DNA of 64,000 bases, taken from Ruditapes philippinarum (Eukaryota). The translations under genes were made by a program, and so were the position numbers. Location of the stretch: positions 248,001-312,000 of the forward strand of contig NW_026858509.1 of the NCBI RefSeq assembly GCF_026571515.1. Reading direction: 5' to 3'. The notes beneath the pieces were generated by a model that saw nothing but the letters and a program-made list of their open reading frames with translations, did no database searches and was not told where the DNA came from. Shown one piece after another: positions 121 to 62,071 of the stretch (positions are counted from its first letter, which is position 1; each line of letters opens with the position of its first letter).

Positions 121-886
121 ATGAGAAAGTTTATCTAAAATGGAAACATTCTTACCAAGTTATGTAAGATAAGCTTGTTTTTATATAGGTAATAAAGACC
201 GGGAAAATGTAAAGCGTGCAGGGCAATGTATCATTGACTTTGCTAAGATAGCGGTGCATGGGTCCCTTCTAGCCATATGCAGGTAGGTCTTGAACTTGTA
301 AATCTTTTTTTTTCCCATAAACTCATTTAGATGCCAGATCGTCAATAATTTATCTGAGACAGTCAGTTTTGAGTTTGACAGTTTTTGTTTTTAAAGTAAA
401 TAGTGGTTTGTTAGTATTTAGGCGGCCCAAGATACACTTGAGACAGTTATTATGGCCTTAAGCTGTTTCCTAATAACAACCTGTGAATGCAATATTTTCA
501 AAATTTTGTAAACTCTTGATTAAGTAAACTTCTCTTATAACGGTATCGTTTATAACGATGCTGTTGCAGTGAACCGACTCTTGATTTTTTAGATTGGTTG
601 CCTCTTGGATATAACATTATAAATTTGGCGGTCCTCTAAGTATCATTGAATGCTGAATTTACTGTAATCTGTTTAACTGTAGATGCATACATATATACAG
701 TACAACAATACAATATAATGCATGATTCTCCTTGAAAATCACTAACTCTTCATATTATTGTTAAAATAATGTATTTACCACTTTCAGCTTAGCTAGAAAA
801 ATAGTCCACATCACCTGGGTTGAGAGGCAAACAACTAAACCTCTTGTTCACCCCTATCTCATCTATATGATTTTCTATTTTTTCAG

Positions 887-1111
887 TCAAGCCCGTGTCT
901 CTCTGCAGTGTGTAAGGGAGGCAACTCACAGTTGCAATGATCGCAGCAGGAACCTGTTCTCCCTGATAACCAATGTATTTGAGACGACCATCGCTACATC
1001 GTGTAAACCAGATACATGTAATCTTGGAATGGCTGAGCATTGTATAGATCAGGGGTTTACAGCCTTGGTCATGCCTCTTTACAGAGATCAGAGTTCAGTT
1101 TTATCATGCCA
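887..1111 (+). CDS. Exon E1 (phase 2-2): helical Cys modules
   Basis: tttcag|t ... tgcca|gtaagt; [16 protein letters not shown]...CNLGMAEHC...VLSC. Confidence 0.85.
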
Positions 1112-4100: not shown

Positions 4101-7100
4101 TGGTACTTAATTTGGTTTTGAATTTAAAGGAGAGGATGACAATAAAATAATGGAGGACAAAGACAAGAAAGAAAGAAGTGGTAACAATCTTGCTTATATG
4201 CTAGAAACAATCAGAGGAAATGCACATGGTCTGGTTAAAATGTTAGAAGGTGAACCATCGAGGGATGAAGATAAGGACATGCCAACACAGATTTTTGATC
4301 AGCTGGAGACTGAAGTCATGAAACTGAAAGAGGAAATTAAAGAAGCAATGGGTGGGTCAGAAAAGCAGAGGATTATTAGGAGACTGCAGGTGACAGAAAA
4401 GAAATTTAAAGCTTTCATGGAAATGAATGGGATGTCAGTGGATATTGATGAAGACCATGATGAAATGAGAGAAAGAATTGATGAAGTAAAGATGTATCTA
4501 GATGAGAGATTAAAGGATCAGATGGAAGAGTTGAAAGGAAGATTTGAAAGTATCAAGTATTCTATAAATTTCTTGACTTCAAAACAGGACACCTTCTGTG
4601 ATAAAGATGATGCAGAAAAGATGGACTATGAAGATGTCAAACCTGGTCTTGAAGTATTCTTTGCAATTAATGCGCTACTGGAAAGTCGTTATGTAAACAA
4701 GGAAAAGATTTGTAGGTAAGTGAGAAATCTTGTTTCCTTGATTATATCAGTTGTAGCTATAACTGTATAGATAGTATTTTGTGTTGGATGCAATCTTGAG
4801 TTCTATGTGTACCTATGAAAAGTCAGATGAGCAGCGTCATGACAAAACCAACATAATGGGTTTGCGACCAGCATGAATCCAGACCATTCTGCGCATCCGC
4901 GCAGTCTGATCAGGATCCATGCTGCTCGCTTACAAACCCTATTACAAGTAGAGAAACTGATAGCAAACAGCATGGATACTGTACTCTTGATTTTTATCAC
5001 CTTTAACGCATGAAAAAAACTCATTTTTTTTCTAGAATATTTTATTTTGATATCAGATAATGATAATAAAAACGGTAAAAATATAAATAAGTTCTACTTT
5101 GTTTTAGGATATCTTACTAATAATTAGCTAATAATTAATAATAAAATGAGAAATAAATTTTACTTTTTGCAGGTTACATGAAAAGATTGAGATGTCCATC
5201 GAGGAGATGGATATGTCTAGAGACATCCCTGAAGAACTTAAAGAGAACATGGAAGCCTCGCTAGAGTACCTGAGTATAGTAGTAGGAAGAATATGCATGC
5301 CCGAGGATGGAGAAGAAGAAGAAGAATGTTTACCATATGAGGATCCAGATGGTACTTGTGATTCACTAGCCACTGCCTTATGTCTGAATACAAATGAATT
5401 TTCTGCTGCAGTTTTAGTAGCTCAAAGGGACAACATGTTTGATAAAGTTTGTCAGTAAGTGTGAACTTCTTGTAAATGTATATTTGATCTTTAGTTAAAA
5501 TTCCAGAATTTTAGTGTTTGTCAGTCAGTGTGAACTTCATGTAAATATATATTTTGATCTTTATAGTTTAAATTCCAGTATTAGAGTTTGTCAGTTAATG
5601 GGAACTACAATGTACATGTTAATGTATATTTGATCTTTAGTGTCAAAGTTTCAAAAAGACAACAATGTACTGATTTTAACATTATTTAGTTTTTACAGAA
5701 TTTATTTTAAGTTTGATTGTGTAGGAAGCTAAAAGCATATAGATACATTTTCAAATGCGTTCCTTGAACCAACCAGCACTGAGCAATGACTGTAAAGTTT
5801 CTTGCTCAAAGAAACAATAGCTTGTTCCTGACAGGGTTTGAACCCATATGGCAAGCAATTATGAGATTACTAGTCTGACATGTTAACCACTTGGCCATGC
5901 GGCCAAACTGTCACCTTAGGGCAGTAACATGTTAACTTCTTTTAAAATTAAATAGGAGTTAACCTGTTATTGTACTAAGGAGACAACATGTATTATTGTG
6001 ATCTTTCTAGAATGGCTGAAGATGCTCTAAGATGTGTTAAGCGAACAACAGCAACATGTCCAGAAGATAACATTCCAAGAGATGCTACACGTGTTAAAAT
6101 TATTATAGACCGACTGCTAGGTGATAAATGTATATTACGACATGAATGTAAGCCTACACCTGAGTGTGACCCTGATGGGGCCATCGAAGAATGTTTCACT
6201 CTTCCAGCAAGAGGCGCAGACTTCTGTCAAGAATTTGAAAGTTCAAATTTACCATGCATTAAGAAGAAACTTGAGGCATGCAAATATTCAGAGGACGTTA
6301 CTCTTGTACAATATGAAATGGAATTGTTTATAAGAAGTTACGACCCTTCCAAAGAATGCGGTATAGATGTCAGCTTAATGTTGGAAGATGTTACAACATC
6401 TGTATCCGTGTGTTTTGTGAAGATGATCCATGGTCTGAGACATGGTTTGGAAACCATGGATACATTCAACAAGGCAATGTGCATGGCTCAATTATCTTAT
6501 CACAAATGTATAGAAGACAAGGATGTCCCTTACCTTGTTGATCTAATTAATTCACAACATAAAGAATTTTTTGGGAACTTCTGGGAAAGAAATTGTGGGT
6601 GGATGGAAGACATGGACGAAGAAGATGATGACAAACTAGAGATTGTGCCTATAGGTATTTATAGATTTGATGTACTTAGGGCTTTAAGGCCCATTATGCC
6701 TCAGAAATGCTTTAATTTTTATTTCTTTATGAAAGCTTTTTATTTTCATTGTCCTATTATAGTTTATTACAAGTAACTTATTGGCTTATTGCCTGAACTA
6801 TATTTTGTTCCTATTGCTTTTTGCAATTGGTACTGTTACAGTGATTTAGTATTTTGTATGGAAGTCACAATACTACTTTGTTTACATTTTGCTTCTTTTC
6901 TGTTGAATAATTCCACATTCAGTTCTACTTTCTTCAGTTTATAAGCCTTACATAAACATTGAGATACACCTGTTTTTCAAATATTTTTTGTAAACAAATA
7001 GATTACATACATACTTGAAATGCATACACAGAAATCATGATTACATTTTCAGATTTGACAGGTTGTAATGTAGATAAAGTTTTGCGTGTAACAGCATCAT

Positions 7101-10100
7101 TCTGGTATCAGACGTCATCTGTTCTTGGAATACACTGGAGCACTGATTTGTATGCCAGTTACTGCAAGTAAGCAAACTTTGTATTCATTATAAAGTAGTG
7201 TTTAAACTACTACCCTGATGATGCATTTTGGAAGTATCCTGACACAAAATCTGTACAAAAGTGATAACAATTGTCTGTGTGTGTTTTGAGAATTTTTAGA
7301 TTGACTATTCATAGAATAGGATGTCTGTTGTATTCACACCAGCATAAGCGTCTTTGTCAGTATTGCTGTCACCATCATACTTTGGATAAGTTTTTTCTTG
7401 CAAGTTTGTTTCTCCAAAACTAAAGAAGGGAATTGGTTGAAACGTCATACACTAATTTTAGAGCATTACAGGAGGTCACTGTACAAGGTCCATAAATCTA
7501 ACATGAATTTTGACTGAATGATGGCCAATTTAAACTTAAGAAATTATACATTATCCAGGTTCTTGTTTTACTATCAAGTACTGTCAGAGAAAAGTAAAGT
7601 ACACTGTCCTATCCACAGCTTTTGTTGAATTTTCTACATTTTCAATTCATATTACATTTTAATTTTGACCTATTTGTTAATCCATTACATCAATTTATTA
7701 CCATAAATGAGCATTTGTGTAAAATGTTAATGGTTTAATTAACCCTACTGTCAAATTTTTGAAAATTTGTTTCATTGTAATGTTTCAATTATAACTTCAA
7801 ATTGGCTCACATATTCAGCAACCTCGCACAATTACACGTTTAACGATCGTTACAAAACGTTACGAATGTTTCTATCGAATGCCATATTCTTGAATTCTTC
7901 ATGTTAATGATTATATCTATGTTCAAGAAACAAATAGGTCACCCACACAATACGTGCAGTCCGAACAAACATTTGTAAAAGGTTACTGCTGCTATCTGAC
8001 CTGCATCTTTTTATGTAAATAAGAACTGACATCAGCTTTGGTACATATCTCAATCTATATTGCATAGTACATGAGGTACACTGACGGTTAACGGTATTGT
8101 TGTTTTCATCGTTAACTTTTCAAAATTGTAAACGTGAGCCTACTTGACAATGTTACTGACCATAGCTTTTGTAACAGTATGCTCAATCTTAAATTTCTTG
8201 TTACCATGGCAATGAGGGGACATATCAAAATTGCCAAAAATCACTATTTCGCATTGATTTTTCCATTTCAAAGTGCTGCAACTTCTCAATGGATTGAGAT
8301 AGAGTCAAAGGCTTTTCAGCGTTGGTTACACATTACCTTTAAATATGATCGACCTGGAGTCATTTTTAGCTTCTCACAAGTTCAAAATCTTCTTGGCAAA
8401 GAGGGGGGCAGCTGCCCCCTTCAAACCCCTAAGCCGTTTTTTCACTATTTGAGGCCTCAAAGGGGGTAGGGGGTCAAAAGTGCATTGTTTTAGTGTATAT
8501 ATGAGGTAAAGGGTTAACACTAGTAATTTTTATGAATTTGAAATTAATGATAATGATAAGTTTGCAACAGTCAAATCAGTTTGTCTTATATAAAACATAG
8601 TTATAAACAACTTTGTTAATCATGGTTATAAATATGAAAACTAGAGTCTTCACAAAATTTAAACATGCCATCAATAAATTCATTACAATTCTGCAGGAGA
8701 AAGACATAAAAAACACTTTTCAAATTTTCATAAAAAAGATAATGAACCAAAAGGTTTGCTTGTTCTCAAAAAGTAAGTGACAGTCTTGAGAAGACAATGT
8801 GATTTACATTTACATTTTGAAAATTCTTGTTACAGCAGATAAGATTTTCATTCTTCTTGTTTTTAGTGATGAACACATTGAAGGCTTGAAAAATGTGTAC
8901 ACAGATGAACTTGGTGAAACCTGCCCACAACCAGCTAAAGATTTTCTGAATGGTGCTCTCCCTTACTTCTCTTCTTTGAAGGAAGAATACTGCCCCTTTG
9001 AACCTAAAAGTAAGTTAATTTGTTTTTAGAAAAAGTAAATTTCCATTTGGATATGCCATGAACTGTGGTTTTATAAAATTCAGACATGAAATACCACCTA
9101 TATAATTATTTTTCTTTAAAGTTTCCTTTTTTAAAATGAGCCTTTCACCATTATAGATACGCATGTACATGTATCTTGGGATTAATTTGCATGGATTTAT
9201 ATTGAAGTGCAAAATTAAATACCAAACCTAACAGATATTTGTCATTAAATCACTTAATTTGTTGATATTTTCACAGTCCCTGAAGGAAGCTGCTCAGTGG
9301 AAGGTGCTCGGCAATGTGTTACTAAGTTTGGAGAGTTCATGGCCCAATATTCACCAAGGGGTGATGTTTGTCAGTAAGTTTATTGTGAATTTATTTCTAC
9401 TTTTATATAGGCTTTGTATGTGTAGGGGATAGAGGCAGGGTTGGTGTGGAAGGTGAGAGGGCTTGCACTTTTGCTCGAATGACTGATTATTTGAAGGCCA
9501 TTGACTTCAAATTATAGTTGTAGGTTGAAATCCCAGCAGGAACATTGTTTTCTTATATAAATGGAATGATCAAGCTTACTTAAGGTTCTACCCATCTTGA
9601 GTACTTCCTCTGCTAGTAAAAGGTGAAAAGTTGTAGTACATGTATCGCCTTTCTTTTTTACTTTACATAAGTTTTCTAAATGATGTCAAAGAGTAGCATT
9701 GAATTATTTACGAAGTTTTAACTAAGTTTTAATTTATGTGATTTATTGAGTGAAATCTAATATGACATTGTGTAATTTTTACGTTTTACAGAAAACGTCG
9801 TGAAAGTATGGAATGTGTGATAAAGTTTTCTATAGGCTGTGATGGAGATGATGAGGAAGCTATTCTTGATCAATTGACATACCTGAGGTTAACTGCTACT
9901 GAAGAATGTGAGCAGCCATCTTGGTGTAACCATGGGGACATGGGAGAAGGGGATGATGGGAATGATGATCAAAAAGATGATGACAAAGAACCAGAAGGAG
10001 ATGATAGAACTAAGAGGGAGGTGGAAGTGAGAATGGAAGATATGAACATTCCTGAAGCAATAGGTATAAGGCATATTTAAATCTGCTTAAAGGAGCTCCA

Positions 10101-13100
10101 CTAAGGTGAAAAAGCCTAAAACATGAAATGAGCCGTGTCATGACAAAACCAACATAGCAGGTTTACGACCAGCAATGGATCCAGACCAGCCTGCGCATCC
10201 GCGCAGTCTGATCAGGATCCATGCTGTTTGCTATCAGTTTATCTACTTGTAATAGAGTTGGTAAGCGAACAGCATGGATCCTGATCAGACTGCGCGGATG
10301 CGCAGGCTGGTCTGGATCCATGCTGGTCGCAAACCCACTATGTTGGTTTTGTAGTGTGTCGGCTCAAATTTAAAATTCTTACATACATCAAGTAAAGCAC
10401 TTAAAATGAAGAAATCTGCAAAGGATGATAAAGAGATATACTTGGAATTAAATTAAATATCATTTTTTATGCAGTTCTTTGCCTGATTTGAGTGAAAAGT
10501 GTTACACCATAAAAATTATTATTCTAGAAACATATGATTAAGGAATGATAAAAAATTTGCTTACAAGTTATTGGTCAAGAGTATTATCAAATGGTACACA
10601 AATGTCATAAAAAATGTTTATGTCAAAACCCTCAGTGGAGTCCCTTTAAAATTATTTTGGTTTCCTCAAACAAATTTGCATTTGGCATATATCCCATTTG
10701 TATTGCTTTTGTTAGATATACAATGTGCAAGTGTATTGACTCCATGGTAATTTCTGTTACAGTGAACCTCACATGTAAAGCTCGTGGAGGCTGTGATGTC
10801 ATGTTTGAAAGATGCTTGAAACAGACTCATGAGGAAACTTGCAGGTAAGCAAATACCGGGAAAATAGAGAATACATGGAGGAGCTTATATAGTTTTCATT
10901 ATGACATTTTATGCTTGTGGAGACAGTCATGATGATTTATCAGACTTGTCATGTCATTACTTTTAAAAGCACAACTACAAAAAAATCTAATTTAGCAATT
11001 ACAAACTTTTGTGGATTTTCTCTAATATTGACCTTCTTATGAGTGTGCATTCTTTTGAATTGGTAAATGCTTGAATACTGTAAACCAGAAGATATGTATA
11101 AATTGGTTTTATCTTTTCATAATTAATATGATGTTCATAACAGCATGTACCAAGTCATGAGCAGTTGTAAAAACTTGCCCCTTACTTCACTTCAGTGTTG
11201 TTATATTTTTCTGGTCCTTCGGGGTCATTGATTCAAGGACATAACAGTTGACAAATATCGCTTAAGCTAATACTAGGGGCCATGAAAGATGTTGCTTTTT
11301 CCATTATCTCTCATGAACAGACCAAATCAAACCAAGCCTGTTTTTTTTATATTACATTGTTGTTTTTATTGGATCTAAGGGATTACCCCTTGTCCAGATT
11401 TTATTTTTACCAATTTCTGTCAAACTATTACTTTGATTTTAGAATTTTACACGACATATGTGATTGACGTTGCATTTATTAGCTCATATTAAACCATGTT
11501 AATTAAAATCTGTTTTACAGCAATGCAAAGTGAATTACAATCAATATTTTATTAAAATTTACACAGATTATCATATTTATCTTGTTTGCTGCTGTCTATC
11601 TTAGTACAACTGTTATTATAATGTTTCACAGGAATGCCACGGAGGTAAAAGAATGTATCAGTGCTCAATTGTCATACTGTCCGATATCACTGAAGATCGT
11701 AGCTCGTAACCACATAATGACTTATCTACAGATGAACAATGCCAACAAGAATGAAGACGAAGAAAACACAAACACTGAGAACCCTGAGAATGTTGATAAT
11801 GAAAGCTGCGATATTGTTCCTGAAGACATAATCGAGTTAGAAAACAAAGGATTAAACACCTGTATAGAGACGTTAGATGAAAAAATGAATGAAACATGGA
11901 GTGTATGTGATTCGTTACACAGTTTCACTCAATGCATGAGGTAATTTATCAAAGTCAACATTGTTTTGTATTTTTATTCAGTAAAACAAGTCGGCTTTTT
12001 TCATCGATCAGTTTTTGATTTTGTCATTAGCCTATCGTCCTCACTGTTGTGGTTTTGAATTCTGCCAGAAAATTTGAATTTATTTATTTGGGAAAGATAT
12101 CCAGCTGACTTATGGAACAAGTCAGCGGTTCTACTTGGGTGCCTGCTAGAGCCTGAATTGATACAAAAAGGGGCTCCTGAGGTCTGCCTCAACCACTATA
12201 GCTGGAAAGTCATCTCATATCTTTATTTTTGGTTGGTTACATTACTTTAAACTCAACCAAATAAAAAGAAATGCAAATTAAATGGAAAAATAATACAAGC
12301 TAATAATAACAAAAAGATCAAAATCACAGCCACCAAGATGAAAAATATTAGTACAAAAGCAAACAAGAAATTCTGCCAGTTTGTCGAAATTTGGAAAGCA
12401 CAGGATTAGTTATCCAAGGGTGGTTTGTTCAATCGAAGTGCAAGACAAATTTTGTGTGACAGTTGATCTCATACATTGAGTCTAACATTGGTCCTTTAAC
12501 CTCTGTTAGCTCTGATTCAGAAATCATGTGAGATTAATATCTGGTCACTTGTGGAGAAATTGATAGTTACTGGTTAGTTATCCAGGAAAGCTGATAAGGT
12601 GGATAGACTGTGGAAATGTTAAGAAAAAATGAGTTAATTTCGGCATAAAAAACATTAAAAGTAAGCAATAACAATGTTCCTGTAATTTGCACTCACTTGT
12701 AACTGTTATGTTAAGAAAATACTTCTTTTAATATAAAATAATATAAATGTATAATGTAACTGTTGTAGGAGTGATTTATCTAGCGAGGACATACCTGCCT
12801 GGTACCAAGGGGTCCTGAATGTACAGTACCATATCTTTGATAACTTCTACAATGACTTTTGTCCAAAGGAGGATGATGATGATGGTATGCTTTTTTGAAT
12901 TTCCTTTAAACATGCTTGAAATTAACATTATATTACAAAGTAACCTCCAAATAAAACCCCACTTCTATAAAGGCCATGTGTGGTATTTCCCTTGGGTTGC
13001 CTTTGTTTACTTGTATCACTGTAGTTATTTACTCTGTTGCTTTTGGAATTGCTAAAATTTACAAAACATAGTTCATTCCAAGTTATTACATGTATTATTT

Positions 13101-52100: not shown

Positions 52101-55100
52101 CTTTTCAATTGCTTTCTTTTGTCCGGACCATAACTTGAAGACTAATGGTTTGAATTCAATATAACTACATACGATGGTCAAGCACATTGAGAGGAAGTGC
52201 AGTGCACAAGAACCATAACTCTATCTTGACTAATTACAGAGTTACTGCCCTTTGTTACTTTTCCTTGTCTGGGGCATAACTTGAACACTACTGGTTGGAA
52301 TTCAAAACAACTTCATACAATTGTCAAACACAATAAGGGGAAGTGCAGTGCACAAAAACCATAACTCTATCTAAAGTAATTACAGAGTTATTGCCCTTTG
52401 TTACTTTTCCATTGCTTTCTTTTGTCCGGACCATAACTTAAAGACTAGTGGTCGGAATTCAATATAACTACATACAATGGTCAAGCACATTGAGAGGAAG
52501 TGCAGTGCACAAGAACCATAACTCTATCTTGACTAATTACAGAGTTATTGCCCTTTGTTACTTTTCCTTGTCCAGGGCATAACTTGAAAATTACTGGTTG
52601 GAATTCAAAACAACTTCATACAATTGTCAAACACAGTAAGGGGAAGTGCAGTGCATAAGAACCATAACTCTATCTAAAGTAATAACAGAGTTATTGCCCT
52701 TTGTTACTTTTTCCCTTTTCTTTTTTTTTGTCCGGAGTTTTTAAATTTTAAAAAATTTGGTATGAATTCTTATAACTTTTAAAAAAAATGGGCGGGACAA
52801 AAGGAAGGAAGGCAGTGGCACAAGAACCTAAAATCCCTCTTGACTAAAAAACAGAGTTTTTTGCCCTTTTTTTAAATTTTTGCAGGTTTTTAGTCCGGAG
52901 CATAAAATTTGGGAAAAACTAATGGTTTTTGGGAAAAAATAAAAAATTCAAAACCAAAGGTCAAAACACATTGAGAGGGGAAAATTTCAGTGCAAAAAAG
53001 AACCCTAACTCCCCCTTTTTTACAAAAATAAAGAGGGTTCTGGCCCCCTTTTTTACTTTTTTGTCTGGGGTAACTTTAAAACGTACTGGTTGAAATTTTA
53101 AAAACAAACTTCCAAAACAATGGTCCCAAATACAAAAAAGGAAAGGAAACAAGTGCACAAGAACTATAACTCCATCTTCAGTATTTATAGAGTTATTGCC
53201 CTTTGTTCCTTTTCCTTGTCCAGAGCATAACTTGAAAACTACTGTTTGGAATTCAATACAACTTCATACAGTTGTCAAGGACATTAAAAGGAAGTGCAGT
53301 GCATAAGAGCCATAACTCCATTTTGACAAAATACAGAGTTACTGCCCTTTGATACTTTTCCTTGTCTGGAGCATAACTTAAAACGTACTGGTTGAAATTC
53401 AAAACAACTTCATACAATGGTCAAGCACAAAAAGAGGAAGTGCAGTGCACAAGAACTATAACTCCATCTTCAGTATTTATAGAGTTATTGCCCTTTGTTC
53501 CTTTTCTTTGTCTTTCTGGACTTATTACAGAGTAATTCAATAAAACTTCATCAATGGCCAACCACATTGAAAGGAAATGCAATATACAAGAACCACAACT
53601 ATCTTTAATTGCCCACAACCATAACTCTATATTTCAATTCTTTTACAAGATATTCTGTTACTAGTTACATCCTCATTTCCGAAGCAGTCTTGTGGGGGTA
53701 TTAATCACATTTAGTGATAGTTCTGGTTTAGTATGTAGGTAACATTATTGCAACATACAAGTTTGCATTTTTGTATGTAGGTAAAATCATTGCAACATAC
53801 ATGTTTTGTATTTAAGTATGTGGGTAAAAGCATTGCAACATACAAGTGTGTATTTTAGTATGTAGGTAACATTATTGCAACATACAAGTTTGCATTTTTG
53901 TATGTAGGTAAAATCATTGCAACATACAAGTTTTGTATTTAAGTATGTAGGTAAAACCATTGCAACATACAAGTTTGTATTTTAGTATGTAGGTAAAACC
54001 ATTGCAACATACAAGTTTGTATTTTAGTATGTGTGTAAATTCATTGCAACATACAAGTTTGTATTTTAGTATTTAGGTAAAACCATTGCAACATACAAGT
54101 TTGTATTTTAGTATGTGGGGAAATTCAATGCAACATACAAGTTTGTATTTTAGTATGTGGGTAAATTCATTGCAACATACAAGTTTGTATTTTAGTATGT
54201 AGGTAAAACCATTGCAACATACAAGTTTGTATTTTAGTATGTGGGTAAAATTATTGCAACATACAAGTTTGTGATAAAACCATTGCAACATACAAGTTTG
54301 TATTTTAGTATTTAGGTAAAACCATTGCAACATACAAGTTTGTATTTTAGTATGTGGGGAAATTCAATGCAACATATAAGTTTGTATTTTAGTATGTAGG
54401 TAAAACCATTGCAACATACAAGTTTGTATTTTAGTATTTAGGTAAAACCATTGCAACATACAAGTTTTGTATTTTAGTTTGTAGGTAAAATCATTGAAAC
54501 AAACAAGTTTTAATTTTGATATGTAAAGTTAAATTATTGCAACATACAAAATTCACTGCAACATACTGTTATTTTATGTAGTTAAACATTATTAGGTATA
54601 ACTAAACTTCTAATGTTTTGTGTTTGTTGTAGCGATAATCGGTAGAGTATACAAACTGTTTTCAATTCAGCATTTAAACTGAAATGTTTTCTGTACTTTT
54701 TTAACATCTTCAGTTTTCCCTTTATGTCTTTTATACAAAATTTCTGCTGATTTAACAGATTGCCTGTCTGTGTACAATGTATAAATGCTTTTCTGCAGGT
54801 ACTTGCTTGTCAAACTGCATGAATGATATTTTAGAAAGTTCTTTTTATCATTGCTATATGGAGAAATTTTAGATCAACATTTGAATACTACGAGGGATGT
54901 CCGGAAAGTTCATATACATCTTCATTTTTTTATTGTAAAACAATACATACGCTGTACAAATTTTGTCAGCATAAAAATACATATCTAGCGAACACATTTA
55001 TCAAAAATTACTGAACTGTGACTAACGTTTGTATTTTAAAAGTATTTACATACAACATATATACATAATCATGGAGCACTTTGACAACGTCAACGGCGTC

Positions 55101-58100
55101 AAATTAAATTCATGTTTACCAACTATTTAATTTCTTCCGATTTCAAAAGCCATCATGGTACCTGTCTGACGTATACTTAATACATGTTATTGCTTCATAC
55201 ATTTCATATTTAAAATTATTATTTAAAAATAAAGATTTCACTGGTTCCCATACTGTGTGTAAGATGTCTGCCTTTTTCAAAAAATGTTGTAACGCAATCT
55301 ACGATATTTCAGCCATGCTACTTTTGGTCACTTCTGGAGCGTTTCTTATACAATATCCTGTCATCACCGCTTCTTTATCTTGTTTGACATTTATTCATTT
55401 AAACACAAGTTGCCTTTAACATTTCATGGTTAATTTTGTTTTAAAGGTAAAGATTATAATCTCAGATGGCGCCATATTAGCGTTGCTATGAAGTTAAATA
55501 TCATTACGTTGCTCCGTCCGTTAATTTGACGTCATTTTTGCAACACAAAATGTACGCACCTTCATTGCCTATAATCGCCGTAAACAAGCTGTTTATTTAC
55601 GTATGACATCATAATTTACACTGAATATCATGTTATACTATCCTATGATGTCACAAAATTAAAACGAGAGATTGCATTAAAATTACATCTTTTAGCAACT
55701 TTTTATTCGAGTAGCTATCATCATGAAATCAAAGTGCTCCGTGGTTCGTTGATCATGTTGCCATGGTGATCGGCGCTTTGCGAATATTACTTTTATCATG
55801 TTTTTTAATTTAGAAATATGTAGCAGATAAATACTTAAGTAAAGTATTAAATCATCATATTGATATGTCTGCTTAAAATAATTTTATAGCCTTGTCTACG
55901 AACTTTCCGGACAGCCCTCGTACATGTATTTTCTGTAATGAATATACATTTTGTGTGAATATATATTTTATTTTTATACTTTAATTTATGACTTTTCTTG
56001 TAACAATTTTTACAAAGTGAATACTGTTTTTAGATATTTTTGGTATTTTTTTGCATTCCATTAACCAATATGCTTTAAAGGTGGAGTTTTAAAGTGATTG
56101 AGTATAGGTCAAGGTCACTGAGGCTAAATATAGATTTTCTTACTTTTTCTCATACTGCCATTTTTATGCTTGCAGAGCATTCATCAGTCTTGCTAATGTA
56201 TTCTTCTTGTTTGAATTTTTACTTTCTGCCATACTAAATATTGTATTTGGATTTCTCCATCTTTAAATCTTGACAAAATCATTTATCAGTTTTAGGGAAA
56301 ATTTCAAAATATGAATTGACTTAATATTGAGCAGTGCAGACAATGATGCTGCAATTTGTTAATTATAAACATACATATTTTTTCTTCTTTGTTTTCTGTA
56401 AATTTTCTGACCCAGTCATACTTTATAACTATTTCTTACTTGCTTATTATTATTTTTTTTTTATTTTGCTTTTTTTGTCTAAAGAAAAATACAAGGCTTT
56501 AAATATATATAAGGTTCAAATTTTGGTAATGATTGTTAGATAATGATATTATGTGAAGGTGTAAGTCACAGACTAACATTCATACTAACCTGGTGATATG
56601 CTGAGAACGTCAGTGGTTCTACTCAGGTGCCCATTTGTGCCTGAAATAATGCAAGGAAGGGCATGTGAGGTCTTCCTCTACCAGTATAGCTGAAAAGTCC
56701 CCATATGACCAATACTGAGTTGGTGCAATGTAAAAACCAAACCCCCCCCCCCCCCCAAAAAAAAAAAAATTAAAACATTAAGGTTTTCACATCCTTTGCT
56801 ATGGTCAAACCATTTGTGTGTGAGAGCTCCTTTCACCATTTGTAATTGTATTAAGACATATCCCTGTTCAACTATCATGTTCTAACTGTTGTATTATCTT
56901 TAAAAAATGTTTATTTTATTTATTATTGCTATACTGTTCATTATTTAGCAATCTTTCAGTCTTATAATCATGTGTCTGTGTGTTGTTTTTCTCTGTTGTT
57001 GTTTTCTCTTTTGTATAGTTATTTCAGACTTTTGTCTCCCTTTAGTAGTTAACTGCTTTACAACAAAGTTCCTTTAATGTTCAAGTCTTAATACTTCTAG
57101 TTCTTCTGTATTGCTTGAAAAAGATGTTTCGCTTTTAATCTCCAATAACTTCCTTTTTTTTCACTCCTTCCTTTGCAAAGTATATTTCATTATTACAAAA
57201 CAAAATATATCTTGAAATTCCATTATGCCCTAATGATTTTACTTTTTGAGATGATTCCATCATATTTAAAATAACACAAGTTTAATATTTGAAATTATCT
57301 AAATTGGATTTTTTTTATTGTAAAAGATATCTTAATAAGATGATTTTGTTTGTTTGTTTTTATTGTTGTTTTGTTTTTTGTTTTTGATTTTTAAATAATT
57401 TAGATTATGTGGATCTTTTTGACCCTTTGTTGTGCAAAAAATCTGAAAAAAAGTGTGATTCTCTTAATCAAAGTTTTCTTTAATGAGACATTATTTGAGC
57501 CACGCCATGACAAAACCAACATAATGGGTTTGCGACCAGCATGGATCCAGACCAGACTGCGCATCCGCGCAGTCTGATCAGGATCCATGCTGTTTGCTTA
57601 CAAACCCTATAACAAATAGAGAAACTGATAGCGAACAGCATGGATCCTGATCAGACTGTGCGGATGCGCAGGCTGGTCTGGATCCATGCTGGTCGCAAAC
57701 GCATTATGTTGGTTTTGTCGTGACGCGGCTCATTTGTTTGAATATATTTACAGAACTGCTGTAGATGTTAATGATGCGGTAGGGCAAAATCTACCAGGCT
57801 GCTCTCCTGTACCTTTCTCTATTGTTGAGGCAGTTTTGATCAACAACAGTGACTGTATTGACTCATTGCTTGTCGGAGTAGAGACACACCCTTGGAAGAC
57901 ATGCATCAGTGAATTCTTCTCAAGTGTCAGTATAAATAAAAATAGTTTTTAAATCTTTACCATAAATCATCCAGTTAGTTCATTTGGTAGAGTATTGGAC
58001 TGCGAATCGGGCGACTCTGGTTCAATTCCCAGATAATGCAAGTCACTTTTGTTATGATTGATCATGAAATCCTTTCTACGGTCATTTGCACTGTACCTCT

Positions 58101-61100
58101 GCTCTGGCATGAACAAATGATAATAGTTTCTTGCAAAAGTGAAGGGAACTAGTACTGGTAAACTCCTTGACAGGCTCTGTCCAGGAACAATGTGGTGGCT
58201 GAACTGTGCTCTGGTAAATTCAATATGGCTCCCTGTCGTGATCCAGAGGGTAAACTACCAACACCAAGTCCTAGACTTATGTGAACAACAACCCCCTTTT
58301 ACAGTCCCCCATTACTCATACATAAATTATGAATACCCTGTAGTCTCTTAACCAAATGCTACATTTTGGTGCTACTTTTATGCATACGAATAACTGTTTT
58401 GTTTGCAGTATCCATGATACAAATATTGGTTCATATTTTTGTAGAGCATACAGATCTCATTGTGTCTAGCATTCAGAAAATCTATGAATTATATGTCACA
58501 GGGTGAGAAAATTGGCATCCCTGACTGGGACTTTAACCTGGGACTCTCTGATAACTGTTCTGTAGGTCGACTGACTGAGCCAGCTCCCCTTCTGGTGAAC
58601 AGTTTTATACCATTACATTTTCCCCAGTTATAATAGAATTTGCTCTAAAGGGTACAGAGAAAAATGTGAATGGACTAGGAGTAAAATACATCATGTTGAG
58701 CAACAAAGGTCAGAGGGAGTGAAAAAAGTGCATCCTGACTGACATTGACCCTCAAAATACTGTTCTGTAGCTCTACCGACTGAGCATTAAGTTTACACAT
58801 TTTGTGTACATTTATTATTAGTGGTCTCTGCAAATACATGTAGTTTAATGAAGTAAAACATTTGATTCACAGCTAAATTTTTCAGATGAACATGCCTTCT
58901 GCCCATTTCCAGGGTTTTCTATAAATGTCATGAAGCTTAATTTGAGCAGCCAGTAGTATACATAACAGTAAAGCCTGGTCAGACAGGATATATTTGCAAC
59001 TTATAATTTGGGGCATAGGTTTGAAGGTTTTCACTTTTATGTGATGCTACAAAAACAACCGATTTTTGCCAAGTGTCAAGGGGGATACTGAACCAATTTT
59101 AACAGCATTGTAACAGATGATATGCATTGCCAGTCTGTTAATCATGAAAACTCTGTAGCATATAATGCATTATTCCTGCTTGTCTTTAAAGAGTTGAATT
59201 ATAGTAGATGTAATAAATGACAGAAAAATACTGCATGCTAGCCCACAGGAAGATGCTGGTTATCCAGCTTTTCAATGTTTGATAAAAAACAACAAAAAAT
59301 GATGCTTTTTTTATTTTTCAGTTTACATTGGAATCTATGTGTAAAGGTTACCAAGATTTCCTGAAATGTTTGATGACAACTGAGACAGTGTCACATGTTG
59401 ATTATGACTTGATAACACCTCATATGGAGACATTCAAATATCTAAACCAGTCTTGCACACAGCCAGGTAAATAAAATTTATTGTGCAAATTTGCAAAATG
59501 TTGTTATTGTTTATTGCTGCATGTACATGTATTTATTTAAGGCATGATCATTTGAAGTGTTATTTAACAAGTTAGAAATATTATTTTTAAATCATAACAT
59601 TTGGAGGAACACTATCTTGATAAGGTGAAATATGCATTTGAGCAAAGAAATATGTTGAAAACTCCAGGGAAACAAGCCGTTTTTCAATGTACAGTAAAAT
59701 CTCACTAATGAGACCACTGAAGGGATTTAACATATCTGGTCTTTATAACAGTATATTATACCTCATTTGCATATGCTCTTCTATATTTAATATGACGTCA
59801 CCCGGTCCATAAACCGCATACAGACCAGGGGCGGTCCATAATTCTTATGAAGACCGTTTAAACGTAACTTTCACGACGTGCGAATTTCACGATGACACAA
59901 ACAGAATGGCCAGGCGATTTGCCTTTTTATCAGAGACATAAATTTATTACATGTTGATCAAAAGTTAATTTAATTATAAATTTTATTTATACAGTTTTTG
60001 AAATTCTTAAAGTTCGGGTTTTTGGCCTAGTAACATTAAATATTTAATTTGATTAACAAAAATGGAATATTAAAAGAAGAGCATGATTTTTTTGCTGCAT
60101 CGCTTGAAAATAATAAAACAAAATCCGACTAGGGTTTTGGATATTTCACACACTGAACAAGTAAAATTATTATTTGAAAGAGAATAATAGTAAAATGACA
60201 GCACAAAACAAATGGATGAAAGGATTTAGATTCGGTATAATATAACAAATAAAACATGGCCTTTCGGGCAAAATGCAAGTTTACGGACTGGTTGGTCAGA
60301 CCTCGAAAGGAATATGGCCCTCAGCTGCGCTTCGGGCCATATACCTTCCTCAGTCTGACCAACCAGTCCGTAAACTTGCATATTGCCCTCAAGCCCATGT
60401 TTTATTTGTTAATTGGTCTCATTAATGAGTTTGGTAAGACAGAAAACCAAGCAAGACTTTTAAAGGATTTCATATTCATTGTACAAGTGTTTAATTCTGT
60501 TTAATTTATGTTTGTTCTATTTGCAGATGGTCCTATCCCTGCAGGTAAGAATTGTTATTAAATTATATTGTGAAATAAATCTAAAACCCTTCTTTTTTCT
60601 TCAAATAATTAGTTGTTTGAGTTTTGCTAAAATTCTTTAATATTTTCATATTGTTGCTCTGACAAGAGGAAGAGAAACTTTTAACCGAAATTACATCATT
60701 CTTTAATGTTATGGTTGAGTCCACATCTACTGTCATAATAAGTAATACTTAGTTCAGCCTCTGACAACTGTGTAGGGGAACAAATTCTTTTGCTCCATGG
60801 TCTAGATCGTTGTTATTTTCTCATGTAAGCTGGAGGTCAGGAGTTCATATCCCAGCCACAGTAGGATCATTTCTTATGCATTTGCATTTTTCTGTACCAA
60901 ACTAAAATGATAAAGGCTCATCTGGGGTGCCTGGCTCTTGGAATTTGTTTGAAAACAGAAATGGTTTCTGATTTAAAAAACAGAAACGGTTTCTGATTTA
61001 ATTATTAAAATAATTTCTGATTCTGTTTCTGATTTAAATATGGAAATGTTTTCTGATTTAACAACTGAAATGGTTTCTGATTTAAAAACAGAAATAGTTT

Positions 61101-62071
61101 CTTATTAAATTAGAGAAGTGGTTTCTGATTTAGAACCAAAATGATTTCTGCTTTGAAAATGAGTCATAAGTTCATCATAAATGGTGATAAGTGTTGGTAC
61201 ACTTCAATCCTAATATATCTTCTAGATATCATTGTTTCAGATGAAGGTTGTCAACCAACAGAAGCTGCTAGGTGTATTCTCACACATGGGATGTTATTTA
61301 CCTTCGCTCCTCTTTCTTCTGTACAACAGAAACAGCAAATGTGTGACAGGTGAATTTATGATTATTACAGAATTGTTTCTAATCAAAACAGCAATGAATA
61401 TGTGTTTCACAGTTAAATAAGAAGTAAATAATTATGTGCAAAAGTTTAAAAAATGTTGTCAAGTGACTACTAAAATATCCCCAAAGTAACTAGATCACAC
61501 CAAACCCTTAGGTTTATTAAATTAACTCACATTTTTGTCATAAGTTTATTTATTTATGTTAACCAAGAAAGTTTAATTTAAAAGCATTTTGTTTTTATAC
61601 AATTAATCAGGTACAAAACTGTAACTGAAGAATGCATGACCAAATGGAACAGTTGTAACTCCACCCATGTGGCTGATGTTAAACAATTCTTTGACAAGAT
61701 CGTAGATGAGTATGTATAGCAATATTTTGTGAATACTGAGTATTTTTATCACTTTTTTAGTTTAAAAAATATATATAGTACAATTTTTGTTATTCTGTTT
61801 TCATTCTGCATATATTTACATGTCTACATGGAGACAGAAGTGCATCCTTTGAGCTTTAATTAGTCAAAATAGAAATTAATTTACTATTCTTATTGAATGA
61901 TTTTAGATCTGAAATGTGTTATGCACCAAAGGAGATTGAGTGCCCTAAAGAACCAGAGGAACCCAAAGAACCAAAATGTGAACCTGGAATGGCCATGACT
62001 TTAATTTCTGAGCTCAGCATATCCTTGTCAAAATGTATCACATCAATGACAATAAAAGATCAAGTTTGCCA
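887..62071 (+). CDS. Partial giant multi-exon gene (58 exons in window, ~3,820 aa, no start or stop): Cys-rich acidic mosaic protein with ~32 six-Cys helical modules, 4 Kunitz, 3 WAP, 2 LU, 2 half-VWC domains
   Basis: Exons joined by hand at AG/GT sites. Each donor phase matches the next acceptor phase through 58 exons, except one 1-nt frameshift in E42. Recurrent C-x8-C-x7-C motif and recognisable Kunitz/WAP/LU Cys patterns. Confidence 0.88.
1586..1972. mobile_element. Large-hairpin non-autonomous element (Crypton-like architecture); same family as 49088-49492
   Basis: ~150-bp imperfect palindrome centred on gagtggtggtagccacgagt; body shared with the 49 kb copy. Confidence 0.6.
2069..2407 (+). 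CDS. Exon E2 (2-2): module C4/C5 then MEDRSG repeats and Ser/Asp-rich low complexity
   Basis: ttacag|c ... tcatc|gtaagt; [16 protein letters not shown]. Confidence 0.8.
2840..3003 (+). CDS. Exon E3 (2-1): acidic helical segment
   Basis: ctag|g ... gacg|gtaggt; in frame with E2 and E4. Confidence 0.75.
3472..3822 (+). CDS. Exon E4 (1-1): two tandem Kunitz/BPTI domains (P1 Arg and Lys)
   Basis: [27 protein letters not shown] and [26 protein letters not shown]...C. Confidence 0.95.
4130..4715 (+). CDS. Exon E5 (1-2): charged coiled-coil-like region plus module Cys
   Basis: aaag|ga ... tgtag|gtaagt; 189-aa ORF. Confidence 0.85.
4829..4978. mobile_element. Truncated copy of the palindromic Sola-like MITE
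   Basis: Left arm and centre match 57497-57650. Confidence 0.8.
5173..5454 (+). CDS. Exon E6 (2-2): helical Cys modules
   Basis: ttgcag|g ... tgtca|gtaagt. Confidence 0.87.
5740..5900 (-). mobile_element. Degenerate tRNA-derived SINE
   Basis: Reverse complement reads tggccaagtggttaa...gggttcaaaccc...tttgagcaagaaacttta. Confidence 0.55.
5910..5985. repeat. ~76-bp hairpin (mini-MITE); second copy at ~32099-32173
   Basis: tgtcaccttag..gttaacttct / taggagttaac..ctaaggagaca; same arms at 32.1 kb. Confidence 0.65.
6011..6654 (+). CDS. Exon E7 (2-1): three helical Cys modules
   Basis: ttctag|a ... atag|gtattt; within 262-aa ORF. Confidence 0.9.
7053..7167 (+). CDS. Exon E8 (1-2)
   Basis: tttcag|at ... 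tgcaa|gtaagc; [11 protein letters not shown]...ASYC. Confidence 0.8.
7743..8513. mobile_element. piggyBac-like non-autonomous element
   Basis: TTAA|ccct ... aggg|TTAA; TIR degenerate. Confidence 0.55.
8867..9009 (+). CDS. Exon E9 (2-1)
   Basis: ttttag|t ... aaaa|gtaagt; ..[16 protein letters not shown]. Confidence 0.82.
9277..9373 (+). CDS. Exon E10 (1-2)
   Basis: tcacag|tc ... tgtca|gtaagt; [15 protein letters not shown]. Confidence 0.82.
9792..10063 (+). CDS. Exon E11 (2-1): module end, acidic linker, furin site RTKR
   Basis: ttacag|a ... atag|gtataa; RTKR at 10006-10017. Confidence 0.85.
10091..10645. mobile_element. Kolobok-like MITE (TTAA target, AGG..CCT ends) hosting a nested palindromic MITE
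   Basis: ttaa|aggagctccactaagg ... ccctcagtggagtccct|ttaa. Confidence 0.65.
10130..10365. mobile_element. ~235-bp palindromic MITE, GAG..CTC ends, 4-bp TSD (Sola-like)
   Basis: aaat|gagccg...cggctc|aaat; long inverted arms ggatccagaccagcctgcgcatccgcgcagtctgatcagg. Confidence 0.85.
10763..10844 (+). CDS. Exon E12 (1-2)
   Basis: ttacag|tg ... tgcag|gtaagc. Confidence 0.8.
11632..11940 (+). CDS. Exon E13 (2-2)
   Basis: tcacag|g ... atgag|gtaatt. Confidence 0.85.
12769..12884 (+). CDS. Exon E14 (2-1)
   Basis: ttgtag|g ... gatg|gtatgc; ..[11 protein letters not shown]. Confidence 0.8.
13231..15210 (+). mobile_element. Helentron/HINE (pearl-like) element with 168-bp internal tandem repeats and a duplicated 3' end
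   Basis: 5' ttatcccccgccga; (GTCC)n microsatellite; units at 13315, 13483, 13651, 13819, 13987; subterminal inverse tcggcgggggatataa plus short hairpin and cttgtt, ending at ~14499 and ~15210. Confidence 0.85.
15249..15347 (+). CDS. Exon E15 (1-1): half-VWC-like Cys module
   Basis: [14 protein letters not shown]...[10 protein letters not shown]; NAGNAG acceptor cagcag. Confidence 0.85.
15633..15716 (+). CDS. Exon E16 (1-1): half-VWC-like Cys module
   Basis: [28 protein letters not shown]. Confidence 0.85.
15965..16073 (+). CDS. Exon E17 (1-2)
   Basis: acacag|ag ... caaaa|gtaagt; EKCRDHE..ESMCQ. Confidence 0.78.
16481..18198 (+). mobile_element. Helentron/HINE (pearl-like) element with ~9 x ~167-bp satellite units
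   Basis: 5' ttttagctcacctgagc and GTC-rich microsatellite; 3' caggtgagcg, hairpin agggccatcatggccct, cttgtt; inserted in a T-run. Confidence 0.88.
18398..18661 (+). CDS. Exon E18 (2-2)
   Basis: tcatag|t ... tgctc|gtaagt. Confidence 0.85.
18676..19492. mobile_element. Large-hairpin element
   Basis: gaaatagatatcaattct...agaattgatatctatttc palindrome (18676-18846); arm copy gagtgcattgttgtagaataatgcacg at ~19408. Confidence 0.65.
20165..20431 (+). CDS. Exon E19 (2-2)
   Basis: tttcag|a ... tgtcc|gtaagt. Confidence 0.87.
21095..21295 (+). CDS. Exon E20 (2-2)
   Basis: tttcag|g ... tgcag|gttttt (weak donor). Confidence 0.83.
21450..21920 (+). mobile_element. Degenerate copy of the 16481-18198 family
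   Basis: gtccggccggcgtccgtcc, acatctcctct, and 2 units with gtctaccaagttt..aaagccctggggtcaaaatt. Confidence 0.7.
22050..22210 (+). CDS. Exon E21 (2-1)
   Basis: ttccag|a ... actg|gtacaa. Confidence 0.8.
22225..22860. repeat. Degenerate ~29-30-bp minisatellite
   Basis: Repeated aaagctttaaccatt....ataactctt. Confidence 0.85.
23076..23918 (+). CDS. Exon E22 (1-1): Ser/Lys/Asp/Glu low-complexity exon with 11-aa and 13-aa tandem repeats
   Basis: ctacag|ct ... tcag|gtaaat; 282-aa ORF. Confidence 0.8.
23613..23903 (+). repeat. Coding 39-bp tandem repeat x ~7.5 ([13 protein letters not shown])
   Basis: Near-identical catcaaagtcggcatcagggtcagctggtagtaaaaaag units. Confidence 0.95.
25479..25679 (+). 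CDS. Exon E23 (1-1): completes the module interrupted by E22
   Basis: ttttag|ga ... agag|gtaaca; [19 protein letters not shown]. Confidence 0.8.
26334..26425 (+). CDS. Exon E24 (1-0): Ly6/uPAR (LU) domain 1, N-half
   Basis: [24 protein letters not shown]. Confidence 0.85.
27023..27194 (+). CDS. Exon E25 (0-1): LU domain 1, C-half
   Basis: [20 protein letters not shown]; 10 Cys together with E24. Confidence 0.88.
27530..27617 (+). CDS. Exon E26 (1-2)
   Basis: ttgcag|aa ... tgcag|gtatag. Confidence 0.8.
28007..28225 (+). CDS. Exon E27 (2-2)
   Basis: taacag|a ... tgcaa|gtaaga. Confidence 0.85.
28524..28648 (+). CDS. Exon E28 (2-1)
   Basis: ctttcag|g ... aaag|gtaaga; the upstream ttttag acceptor gives a stop. 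Confidence 0.75.
29111..29421 (+). mobile_element. Degenerate short HINE ending in the E29 polypyrimidine tract (related fragment at ~15745-15860)
   Basis: tttagctcatctg ... cattgtgcaaaaactttaatgtagcccattattc ... gtgctcttgt. Confidence 0.6.
29431..29616 (+). CDS. Exon E29 (1-1): WAP four-disulfide core 1
   Basis: [23 protein letters not shown] (8 Cys). Confidence 0.87.
30185..30346 (+). CDS. Exon E30 (1-1): WAP domain 2
   Basis: [38 protein letters not shown]. Confidence 0.92.
30872..31024 (+). CDS. Exon E31 (1-1): WAP domain 3
   Basis: [39 protein letters not shown]. Confidence 0.92.
31265..31355 (+). CDS. Exon E32 (1-2): unnamed Cys module, N-part
   Basis: [29 protein letters not shown]. 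Confidence 0.85.
31409..31586. repeat. 26-bp minisatellite x ~6.8
   Basis: taatgtcagtttctctatatctgtaa, perfect copies. Confidence 0.95.
31895..31971 (+). CDS. Exon E33 (2-1): unnamed Cys module, C-part
   Basis: [25 protein letters not shown]. Confidence 0.85.
32320..32640. repeat. ~31-bp minisatellite overlapping the E34 acceptor
   Basis: tatttagattaaccatgtgaaatgac units. Confidence 0.85.
32622..32795 (+). CDS. Exon E34 (1-1): Kunitz domain 3 (atypical reactive loop)
   Basis: [33 protein letters not shown]; last Cys codon split T|GT with E35. Confidence 0.9.
33426..33936. mobile_element. piggyBac-like MITE
   Basis: TTAA|cccattac ... gtaatggg|TTAA. Confidence 0.7.
34015..34188 (+). CDS. 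Exon E35 (1-1): Kunitz domain 4
   Basis: [35 protein letters not shown]. Confidence 0.92.
34605..34719 (+). CDS. Exon E36 (1-2)
   Basis: tttcag|aa ... tgcag|gtaaaa; 115 nt like E8 and E41. Confidence 0.78.
34809..35045 (+). mobile_element. tRNA-derived SINE (decayed relatives at ~12020-12265, ~24855-24945, ~45065-45140, ~56590-56745)
   Basis: A-box tggccgagtgg, B-box-like ggttccagcc; shared body ggttctac..ggtgcc..cctccacc..aaagct..aaagtc..atatgacc. Confidence 0.7.
35280..35528 (+). CDS. Exon E37 (2-2)
   Basis: attcag|a ... tgtgt|gtaagt. Confidence 0.85.
35775..36163 (+). CDS. Exon E38 (2-1)
   Basis: tttcag|a ... aatg|gtgagt. Confidence 0.88.
37030..37133 (+). CDS. Exon E39 (1-0): LU domain 2, N-half
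   Basis: [23 protein letters not shown]. Confidence 0.87.
37755..37980 (+). CDS. Exon E40 (0-1): LU domain 2, C-half, then furin site RKKR
   Basis: [24 protein letters not shown]; RKKR at 37950-37961. Confidence 0.88.
38630..38744 (+). CDS. Exon E41 (1-2)
   Basis: ttacag|ta ... tgcga|gtaaat. Confidence 0.8.
39391..39673 (+). CDS. Exon E42 (2-2), contains apparent +1 frameshift near gggg 39406-39409
   Basis: tttcag|t ... tgcat|gtgagt; as written hits TAA at 39413-39415. Confidence 0.7.
40329..40574 (+). CDS. Exon E43 (2-2), super-repeat copy 1
   Basis: tttcag|t ... tgctt|gtaagt; paralog of E51. Confidence 0.87.
41088..41563. mobile_element. Large-hairpin element (GC-rich arms)
   Basis: Palindrome 41088-41237 centred on ggtaacgaggcttgccgagttacc; tttcttgcata / tatgcaagaa inverted pair. 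Confidence 0.7.
42085..42327 (+). CDS. Exon E44 (2-2)
   Basis: ttacag|g ... tgcgc|gtaagt; paralog of E52. Confidence 0.87.
42930..43098 (+). CDS. Exon E45 (2-0)
   Basis: ttgcag|t ... gat|gtaagt; paralog of E53. Confidence 0.85.
43721..43865 (+). CDS. Exon E46 (0-1)
   Basis: caacag|ttc ... ccag|gtgtgt; 145 nt like E54. Confidence 0.83.
44384..44401 (+). CDS. Micro-exon E47 (18 nt, 1-1), EETIPA linker
   Basis: Long pyrimidine tract-tgcag|aggagacaattccagctg|gtaaga; paralog of E55. Confidence 0.72.
44845..44953 (+). CDS. Exon E48 (1-2)
   Basis: [23 protein letters not shown]; 109 nt like E56. Confidence 0.87.
46724..46819 (+). CDS. Exon E49 (2-2)
   Basis: [23 protein letters not shown]; paralog of E57. 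Confidence 0.82.
47189..47299 (+). CDS. Exon E50 (2-2)
   Basis: [26 protein letters not shown]. Confidence 0.83.
47807..48055 (+). CDS. Exon E51 (2-2), super-repeat copy 2
   Basis: ttctag|t ... tgctt|gtaagt. Confidence 0.87.
48493..48720 (+). CDS. Exon E52 (2-2)
   Basis: ttacag|a ... tgcct|gtaggt. Confidence 0.85.
49088..49492. mobile_element. Large-hairpin element, second copy of the 1586-1972 family
   Basis: Shared atgaaaataaatatttcatg..tagcca.gagt..aatcctgt.tttata..ttttctgtttattatatac..gtgaaaaataaattt. Confidence 0.6.
50007..50913. mobile_element. pogo/Tigger-like (Tc1/mariner superfamily) MITE
   Basis: TIRs cagtaaactccgcttataacgaac / gttcgctataagtgaagtttactg; TA target duplication; no ORF. 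Confidence 0.88.
51390..53728 (+). mobile_element. Helentron/HINE element with alternating 146/157-bp units, inserted in a TT of the 42-bp minisatellite
   Basis: 5' tttatacccccc hairpin and (GGTC)n; tgtcc unit starts at 51514, 51660, 51817, 51963, 52120, 52266, 52423, 52569; 3' gggggtat, hairpin atcacatttagtgat. Confidence 0.85.
54891..55920. mobile_element. Tc1/mariner-like non-autonomous DNA transposon
   Basis: TIRs cgagggatgtccggaaagttc / gaactttccggacagccctcg; TA duplication; internal inverted pair catggagcactttga / tcaaagtgctccgtg. Confidence 0.88.
57497..57731. mobile_element. Second full copy of the palindromic Sola-like MITE
   Basis: attt|gagcca...cggctc|attt. Confidence 0.85.
57754..57925 (+). 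CDS. Exon E53 (2-0)
   Basis: ttacag|a ... agt|gtcagt; [21 protein letters not shown] matches E45. Confidence 0.83.
57968..58268 (+). mobile_element. tRNA-derived SINE with Meta-type central domain
   Basis: tagttcatttggtagag..ggttcaattcc head followed by gattgatcatgaaatcctttctacggtcatt. Confidence 0.6.
59322..59466 (+). CDS. Exon E54 (0-1)
   Basis: [24 protein letters not shown]. Confidence 0.85.
59752..60413. mobile_element. Large-hairpin element nested in a small pogo-like MITE (59692-~60432)
   Basis: Palindrome 60243-60412; tatattatacc / ggtataatata inverted pair; host arms cagtaaaatctcactaatgagacc / ggtctcattaatgag. Confidence 0.65.
60527..60544 (+). CDS. Micro-exon E55 (18 nt, 1-1), DGPIPA linker
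   Basis: ttgcag|atggtcctatccctgcag|gtaaga. Confidence 0.72.
60952..61152. repeat. ~24-bp degenerate minisatellite
   Basis: aaaacagaaatggtttctgattta units. Confidence 0.8.
61241..61349 (+). CDS. Exon E56 (1-2)
   Basis: [23 protein letters not shown]. Confidence 0.87.
61611..61709 (+). CDS. Exon E57 (2-2)
   Basis: [24 protein letters not shown]. Confidence 0.83.
61907..62071 (+). CDS. Exon E58 (2-2); gene continues past the window
   Basis: ttttag|a ... tgcca|gtaagt. Confidence 0.83.

Follow-up and report, generated by a model that had tools for sequence, protein, structure and literature searches.

Inferring disulfide bonds from the paired loss of cysteines is standard practice, and a giant multi-domain gene of Ruditapes philippinarum raises the question of how much such losses can reveal about a repeated six-cysteine module. 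The window analysed here is a stretch of 64,000 nucleotides (NCBI RefSeq assembly GCF_026571515.1, contig NW_026858509.1, positions 248,001 to 312,000 of the forward strand), and coordinates refer to it unless another locus is named. An earlier note, made from the letters of this window, had proposed that bonds within the module are C1-C5, C2-C4 and C3-C6, with C3-C6 invariant. Co-loss of cysteines and the modelled layout of helices make this bond order very probable. It fits the blind labelling of lone cysteines, the paired losses in relatives, a three-helix model and the bond order of RAMP1, but the invariance of C3-C6 did not stand.

Paired cysteine loss in a repeated module

The gene model was built from an exon scan, manual checks and RNA contigs. 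Its 61 exons, two of them upstream and 59 in the window, give a single open frame of 3922 amino acids with 267 cysteines. RNA contigs from two studies back 13 splice joints within 34010-48400 (11 in both studies, two in one); the RNA evidence spans this ~14 kb, and exons elsewhere are predicted. The window contains 32 modules of ~70 residues (M2-M33, the last finishing past the window edge) with the spacing C1-x7-C2-x10-27-C3-x8-C4-x7-C5-x22-C6. The gene and the modules on which the argument turns are as follows.

189..62071, + strand: window part (59 exons) of the giant multi-domain gene; start upstream of the window, 3′ end likely near +119.5 kb in window coordinates
227..1004, + strand: M2, with C2-C6 but, as modelled, no C1; C1 site near a split codon; exon prediction only
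1017..3003, + strand: M3, C1-C5 followed by a low-complexity insertion, without a local C6; exon prediction only
4597..4599, + strand: lone cysteine ending an amphipathic helix, in a C6-like context (C1-versus-C6 profile test)
4711..5296, + strand: M4, C3 and C6 only
5327..6149, + strand: M5, six cysteines flanked by two extra ones (5327, 6147); extra pair also in the scallop orthologue
6165..6359, + strand: M6, full six-cysteine copy inside one exon; three-helix bundle in the AlphaFold model
6411..6596, + strand: M7, without C1 and C5; inside one exon
7064..8993, + strand: M8, without C2 and C4
11861..12862, + strand: M11, without C1 and C5
15970..18545, + strand: M12, without C2 and C4
22186..25675, + strand: M16, without C1 and C5; Ser/Lys-rich insertion of 313 residues between C2 and C3
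28149..28644, + strand: M18, without C2 and C4; one extra cysteine at 28155
34625..35400, + strand: M19, without C2 and C4; RNA-supported splice joints
35953..36144, + strand: M21, without C1 and C5
38647..39509, + strand: M22, without C2 and C4; assembly one base longer than RNA near 39403
39609..47201, + strand: block M23-M27, including C2/C4-less M25 and C1/C5-less M26
47229..61919, + strand: duplicate block M28-M32, including C2/C4-less M30 and C1/C5-less M31
61977..62069, + strand: N-terminal half of M33, with C1, no C2, C3 and two extra cysteines; C4-less C-terminal half past the window

Among the 31 complete modules, 23 have both C2 and C4 and eight have neither, with no discordant copy; for C1 and C5 the counts are 23 with both, six with neither and two discordant (M2 and M4). 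C3 is found in all 31 and C6 in 30, M3 being discordant for this pair. Scoring co-occurrence over all modules bore out the paired loss described in the earlier note: the seven modules it had named as lacking C2 and C4 (M8, M12, M18, M19, M22, M25, M30) and the six named as lacking C1 and C5 (M7, M11, M16, M21, M26, M31) were all recovered, as was its module with only C3 and C6, which is M4; the exceptional M2 lies outside the coordinates it covered. Three 16-mers cited there for a fixed C3-C5 distance are present in the model translation, and the distance of 16 residues holds in five of the seven C4-less modules having C5, with 17 in M18 and 19 in M8. About 16 further cysteines beyond the six canonical positions, several of them conserved in the scallop orthologue, had been overlooked. 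The pair at 5327 and 6147 around M5 likely forms a fourth, clamping bond.

Because the C2-C3 loop is variable, a lone cysteine in the N-terminal half could be labelled C1 or C2 at will. A context profile of flanking residues was trained on 80 six-cysteine homologue modules, blind to the C-terminal half (78 and 76 of 80 correct in leave-one-out tests). It agreed with the hand labels for 15 of 15 lone N-half cysteines of the window, calling C1 in the eight C4-less modules and C2 in the six C5-less modules and in M2; for the cysteine of M4 the choice offered was C1 or C2 only. The labels are therefore not circular. A C1-versus-C6 test, correct in 72 and 67 of 79 leave-one-out cases, gave the cysteine at 4597 a C1-minus-C6 score of -6.0, that is, C6-like, and its assignment as C1 of M4 was dropped. 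The scallop orthologue also has a cysteine after the insertion at the matching point, and the one at 4597 is probably a displaced C6, belonging either to M3 or to a degenerate module.

The same paired losses are present in scallop, limpet and nemertean relatives. A module profile search of 1.84 billion representatives yielded 25 matches, the long ones including proteins of Lottia, Ylistrum and Tubulanus; further searches brought in proteins of Mizuhopecten and Pecten, and among the named relatives those of scallops and the limpet are nearest. With exon 6012-6653 as query, a word-index protein search found no match and a genome search matched only the exon itself. An iterated hidden Markov model (HMM) identified 129 module domains in seven relatives, a count from which the near-duplicates P0003, P0012 and P0040 are excluded; the HMM favours cysteine-richer modules and therefore should not hide single losses. 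Among the 122 domains with C3, sorted by eye, 85 are plain six-cysteine copies and 37 are others: 16 C4-less, 15 C5-less, three six-cysteine domains with shifted spacing, one with a displaced or missing C6, one truncated, and one, at the frayed end of a gene, that has C1 and C2 yet lacks C4. By eye, C2 occurs in none of the 16 C4-less domains (the profile gave nine C1, three C2-like calls and four false pairs that were overridden), and a C1-C2 pair occurs in none of the 15 C5-less ones (nine C2, two marginal, four single cysteines before a long insertion). Seven domains lack C3; two of these, in P0001, also lack C6, two orthologous scallop modules retain C6, and three are truncated or short-spaced. 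All three pairs, C1+C5, C2+C4 and C3+C6, are thus found as co-losses.

Proposed fold, bond order and origin of the losses

AlphaFold predicts M6 as a three-helix bundle (predicted local distance difference test, pLDDT, 80) with helices at residues 5-12, 22-38 and 45-61. In this layout C1 and C5 lie at one end, C2 and C4 in the middle and C3 and C6 at the other end, an arrangement that would fit bonds C1-C5, C2-C4 and C3-C6. A single-sequence AlphaFold model of exon 6012-6653 reached a pLDDT of 34.6, and Foldseek against the PDB returned no match for the module model. The published bonds of RAMP1 (PDB 3n7p chain D) have the order C1-C5, C2-C4, C3-C6.

We propose that each copy is a three-helix bundle, likely stapled by these three bonds. 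Loss of one cysteine would leave a free thiol, which is likely harmful in a secreted protein, and its partner would then probably be lost too. The two-bond and one-bond subtypes would have arisen a few times and spread by module and block duplication, and further clamping, inside a module or from one to the next, would likely come from the extra cysteines, among them the two on either side of M5.

Several observations weigh against this reading or narrow it. Since the module copies are related, a naive Fisher test (p 1.3e-7 for C2/C4, 6.4e-5 for C1/C5) exaggerates the significance. The best five of 496 module pairs are M23/28, M24/29, M25/30, M26/31 and M27/32, at 25-40% against a median of 7%; M23-M27 and M28-M32 are a duplicated five-module block, and two of the cases in the earlier note are therefore repeats. 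On a mostly unresolved module tree (152 rows, 57 columns, cysteine columns left out), starred branches force just one origin of the C1/C5-less type and two of the C2/C4-less type. With the duplicated block, this undercuts the 13 independent losses that the note had implied. M2 keeps C5 without C1, the sole remaining exception if the cysteine at 4597 is C6 of M3, and an extra exon that could supply its C1 was looked for and not found. Nor is C3-C6 invariant: both cysteines are co-lost twice in P0001, and in this gene's module at 73618-74125 C3 is gone and C6 kept, matching the two scallop modules.

That conserved orphan C6 may be linked to another module or another chain, and some canonical cysteines may be bonded across neighbouring modules or chains, the intramodule scheme then being true for part of the copies. 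The orphan C5 of M2 and the 16 extra cysteines, several of them conserved, point the same way. We regard this as unlikely, since plain six-cysteine copies make up 85 of the 122 C3-bearing homologue domains, a lone module folds confidently in the model, and losses are confined to one module.

Alternatively, co-loss could merely record the repeated duplication of two or three ancestral subtypes, in which case it would carry little bonding information and the true pairing might differ. The duplicated block speaks for this view, and the loss labels do cluster on the tree: there are 11 changes for the C1/C5-less label (shuffled mean 20.1) and 18 for the C2/C4-less label (shuffled mean 22.5), and of 500 shuffles none and one, respectively, are as low. 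A single origin of the C1/C5-less type is compatible with the tree. All six C1/C5-less modules of the window share a layout in which the intron after C3 is missing. Even one origin per type, however, still assigns all six cysteines to three non-overlapping pairs (C3+C6 coming from P0001), and the helix layout and RAMP1 give the same pairs, which makes a different pairing very unlikely. We give scarcely any credence to the idea, now largely refuted, that the missing cysteines reflect wrong exon choice or lone cysteines labelled to fit: most exons were predicted by hand, at least one single-base discrepancy separates assembly and RNA, and the C2-C3 loop varies in length, but RNA joints back M19, M21, M22, M25 and M26, M7 lies inside one exon, the blind classification was right in 15 of 15 cases, and the same types recur in homologues that were annotated independently.

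Likeness to known families

A module with the probable bonds C1-C5, C2-C4 and C3-C6 invites comparison with described domains. Among 35 window exons the helical six-cysteine modules gave no Pfam match over cut-off. In its spacing, and perhaps in its modelled fold, the module resembles RGM-N (RGM_N, PF06535; RGMA/B/C, PDB 4ui1, 6z3m), which shares six cysteines and the spacing C3-x8-C4-x6/7-C5-x21/22-C6. RGM proteins have a VWD-like domain cleaved at D-P-H, and a D-P-H VWD is likewise present here, in exons downstream of the window. RGM proteins, which are anchored by glycosylphosphatidylinositol (GPI), have one N-domain, whereas dozens of modules and a transmembrane end are found here. Neither a window exon nor a whole homologue reached the RGM_N cut-off (24.2 bits), and one of eight modules tested reached E 0.0017. 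The genome-wide RGM_N search found only a separate true RGM locus on another contig (L016:1501-1716, 40.2 bits); the module HMM gives the RGM-N of this locus 10.0 bits, a value reached by 29 of 1000 cysteine-preserving shuffles. Aligned by hhalign, module and RGM-N gave a non-significant E of 0.73, and searching PDB sequences with the module profile or the species' own RGM-N yielded nothing useful. The RGM-typical motif after C5, [FY]HS or G[DN]L, is present in none of 131 modules (106 homologue, 25 model). Kinship of the module with RGM-N is plausible but unproven.

In PMC7354924, the conserved linker between helices 2 and 3 of RGM-N is described as binding BMP/GDF. It is a doubtful idea that RGM is the one-module form, and the giant lophotrochozoan proteins the ~50-module membrane-tethered form, of one ancestral plan of three-helix six-cysteine module(s) plus a self-cleaving D-P-H VWD, in which modules and VWC domains would bind and sequester BMP/TGF-beta ligands, protected by built-in protease inhibitors.

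The RAMP1 ectodomain differs in cysteine spacing (27, 40, 57, 72, 82, 104) and in being a single domain and a receptor chaperone, and Pfam and PDB sequence searches found no similarity of RAMP to the modules. Two further families are leads only, and both differ in being small secreted proteins. UniRef calls the limpet homologue P0002 'DUF19 domain-containing' (T20D4.11-like, PF01579), and a DUF19 cluster was the top Atlas feature match (0.76), P0039 giving no usable one there; the DUF19 Pfam profile had no match on six homologues (E up to 10) or 35 exons, and a genome search for it was blank, as was its control. DUF1397 (PF07165) matches two of eight modules, with a best E of 0.0027. The C-terminal VWD, EGF and membrane anchor of the homologues and of exons downstream of the window recall proteins with VWD plus EGF, which we take to be VWDE-like; here, by contrast, a very long N-terminal six-cysteine helical array with Kunitz, WAP, LU, VWC and VWA domains comes first. 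A literature search, made mostly on result listings, turned up neither a description of these proteins nor a paper naming six homologue identifiers, and no passage that numbers the bonds of RGM-N; the main text of PMC3374290 does not contain the limpet protein identifiers. This family of giant repeat-plus-VWD membrane proteins appears to be undescribed.

The bond order is already known from RAMP1 and, as stated, would not surprise a specialist. The analysis defines a repeat outside Pfam coverage, with dozens of copies per protein in uncharacterised giants of bivalves, a limpet and a nemertean, and gives it a likely fold: a bundle that would stand with three bonds, with two or with a single one and would accommodate very long insertions in its loops, such as the 313 residues in M16. 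The pairing of the six-cysteine module with a D-P-H VWD connects it, in a way that can be tested, to the question of how RGM-type proteins arose.

The gene around the modules

Pfam matches over cut-off in the 35 exons are Kunitz and WAP; those to VWC and LU are weak.

3474..3821, + strand: two Kunitz domains (PF00014, E 6.3e-42)
15251..15715, + strand: two VWC-like half repeats (PF00093, E 0.0015-0.0047, under cut-off)
26348..27194, + strand: LU (Ly6/uPAR)-like domain (weak PF16975, E 0.08; cysteine pattern)
29433..34187, + strand: WAP domains and two Kunitz domains (PF00095, E 2e-10; PF00014, E 1e-15)
37032..37979, + strand: LU-like domain (PF00021, E 8.4e-4, under cut-off)

The upstream flank contains VWC/pacifastin-like repeats. 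Downstream, to about +119.5 kb, lie ~20 more modules (unassembled), VWA, WAP, VWD-like exons, EGF and a hydrophobic segment. The window and these exons would form one chain, judging from homologues that join modules, VWD and EGF; in P0001, P0026 and P0039 a C-terminal VWD with [GN]DPH is combined with EGF and a membrane anchor. The modules would then be stiff beads of a long extracellular stalk, likely on the cell surface, which carries Kunitz and WAP protease inhibitors, VWC, LU, VWA and low-complexity loops and is anchored by the VWD-EGF-transmembrane end. D-P-H self-cleavage occurs in RGMs and mucins, and the NDPH at the start of the VWD-like region (107947-108023) is a possible self-cleavage site. 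Furin-like basic motifs (TKR, RKKR, RRRR) lie in inter-module linkers at 9990-10010, 37950-37965 and near 93300 (L010), where cleavage may divide the chain into several parts.

Long Ser/Lys/Gly-rich insertions separate C2 from C3 in C1/C5-less modules (23076-23918, L008:4517-5043, L010:8924-9561); mostly they precede an LU or WAP domain, an arrangement also seen in scallops and limpet. An 18-base microexon at 44384-44401 is RNA-supported and has a paired counterpart at 60527-60544 in the second duplicated block. In the A run at 39391-39404 the assembly has one base more, near 39403, than a raw read and the RNA contigs from both studies; this extra base, which breaks the gene frame, is likely an assembly error.

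The introns hold tandem arrays at 13314-15014, 16712-18008 and 50914-54549 (units of 167-168, 42 and 146/303 bases) and a dispersed, recurrent element with long inverted ends, resembling a miniature inverted-repeat transposable element (4815-4990, 10130-10360, 57500-57730). A 202-codon open frame on the - strand of an intron (63001-63606) presumably resembles the SGNH/GDSL-type open reading frame of a mobile element. Intronic repeats at 34890-34930, 40730-41690 and 45530-46970 show hundreds-fold RNA read depth, far over that of exons, and these reads likely stem from copies elsewhere.
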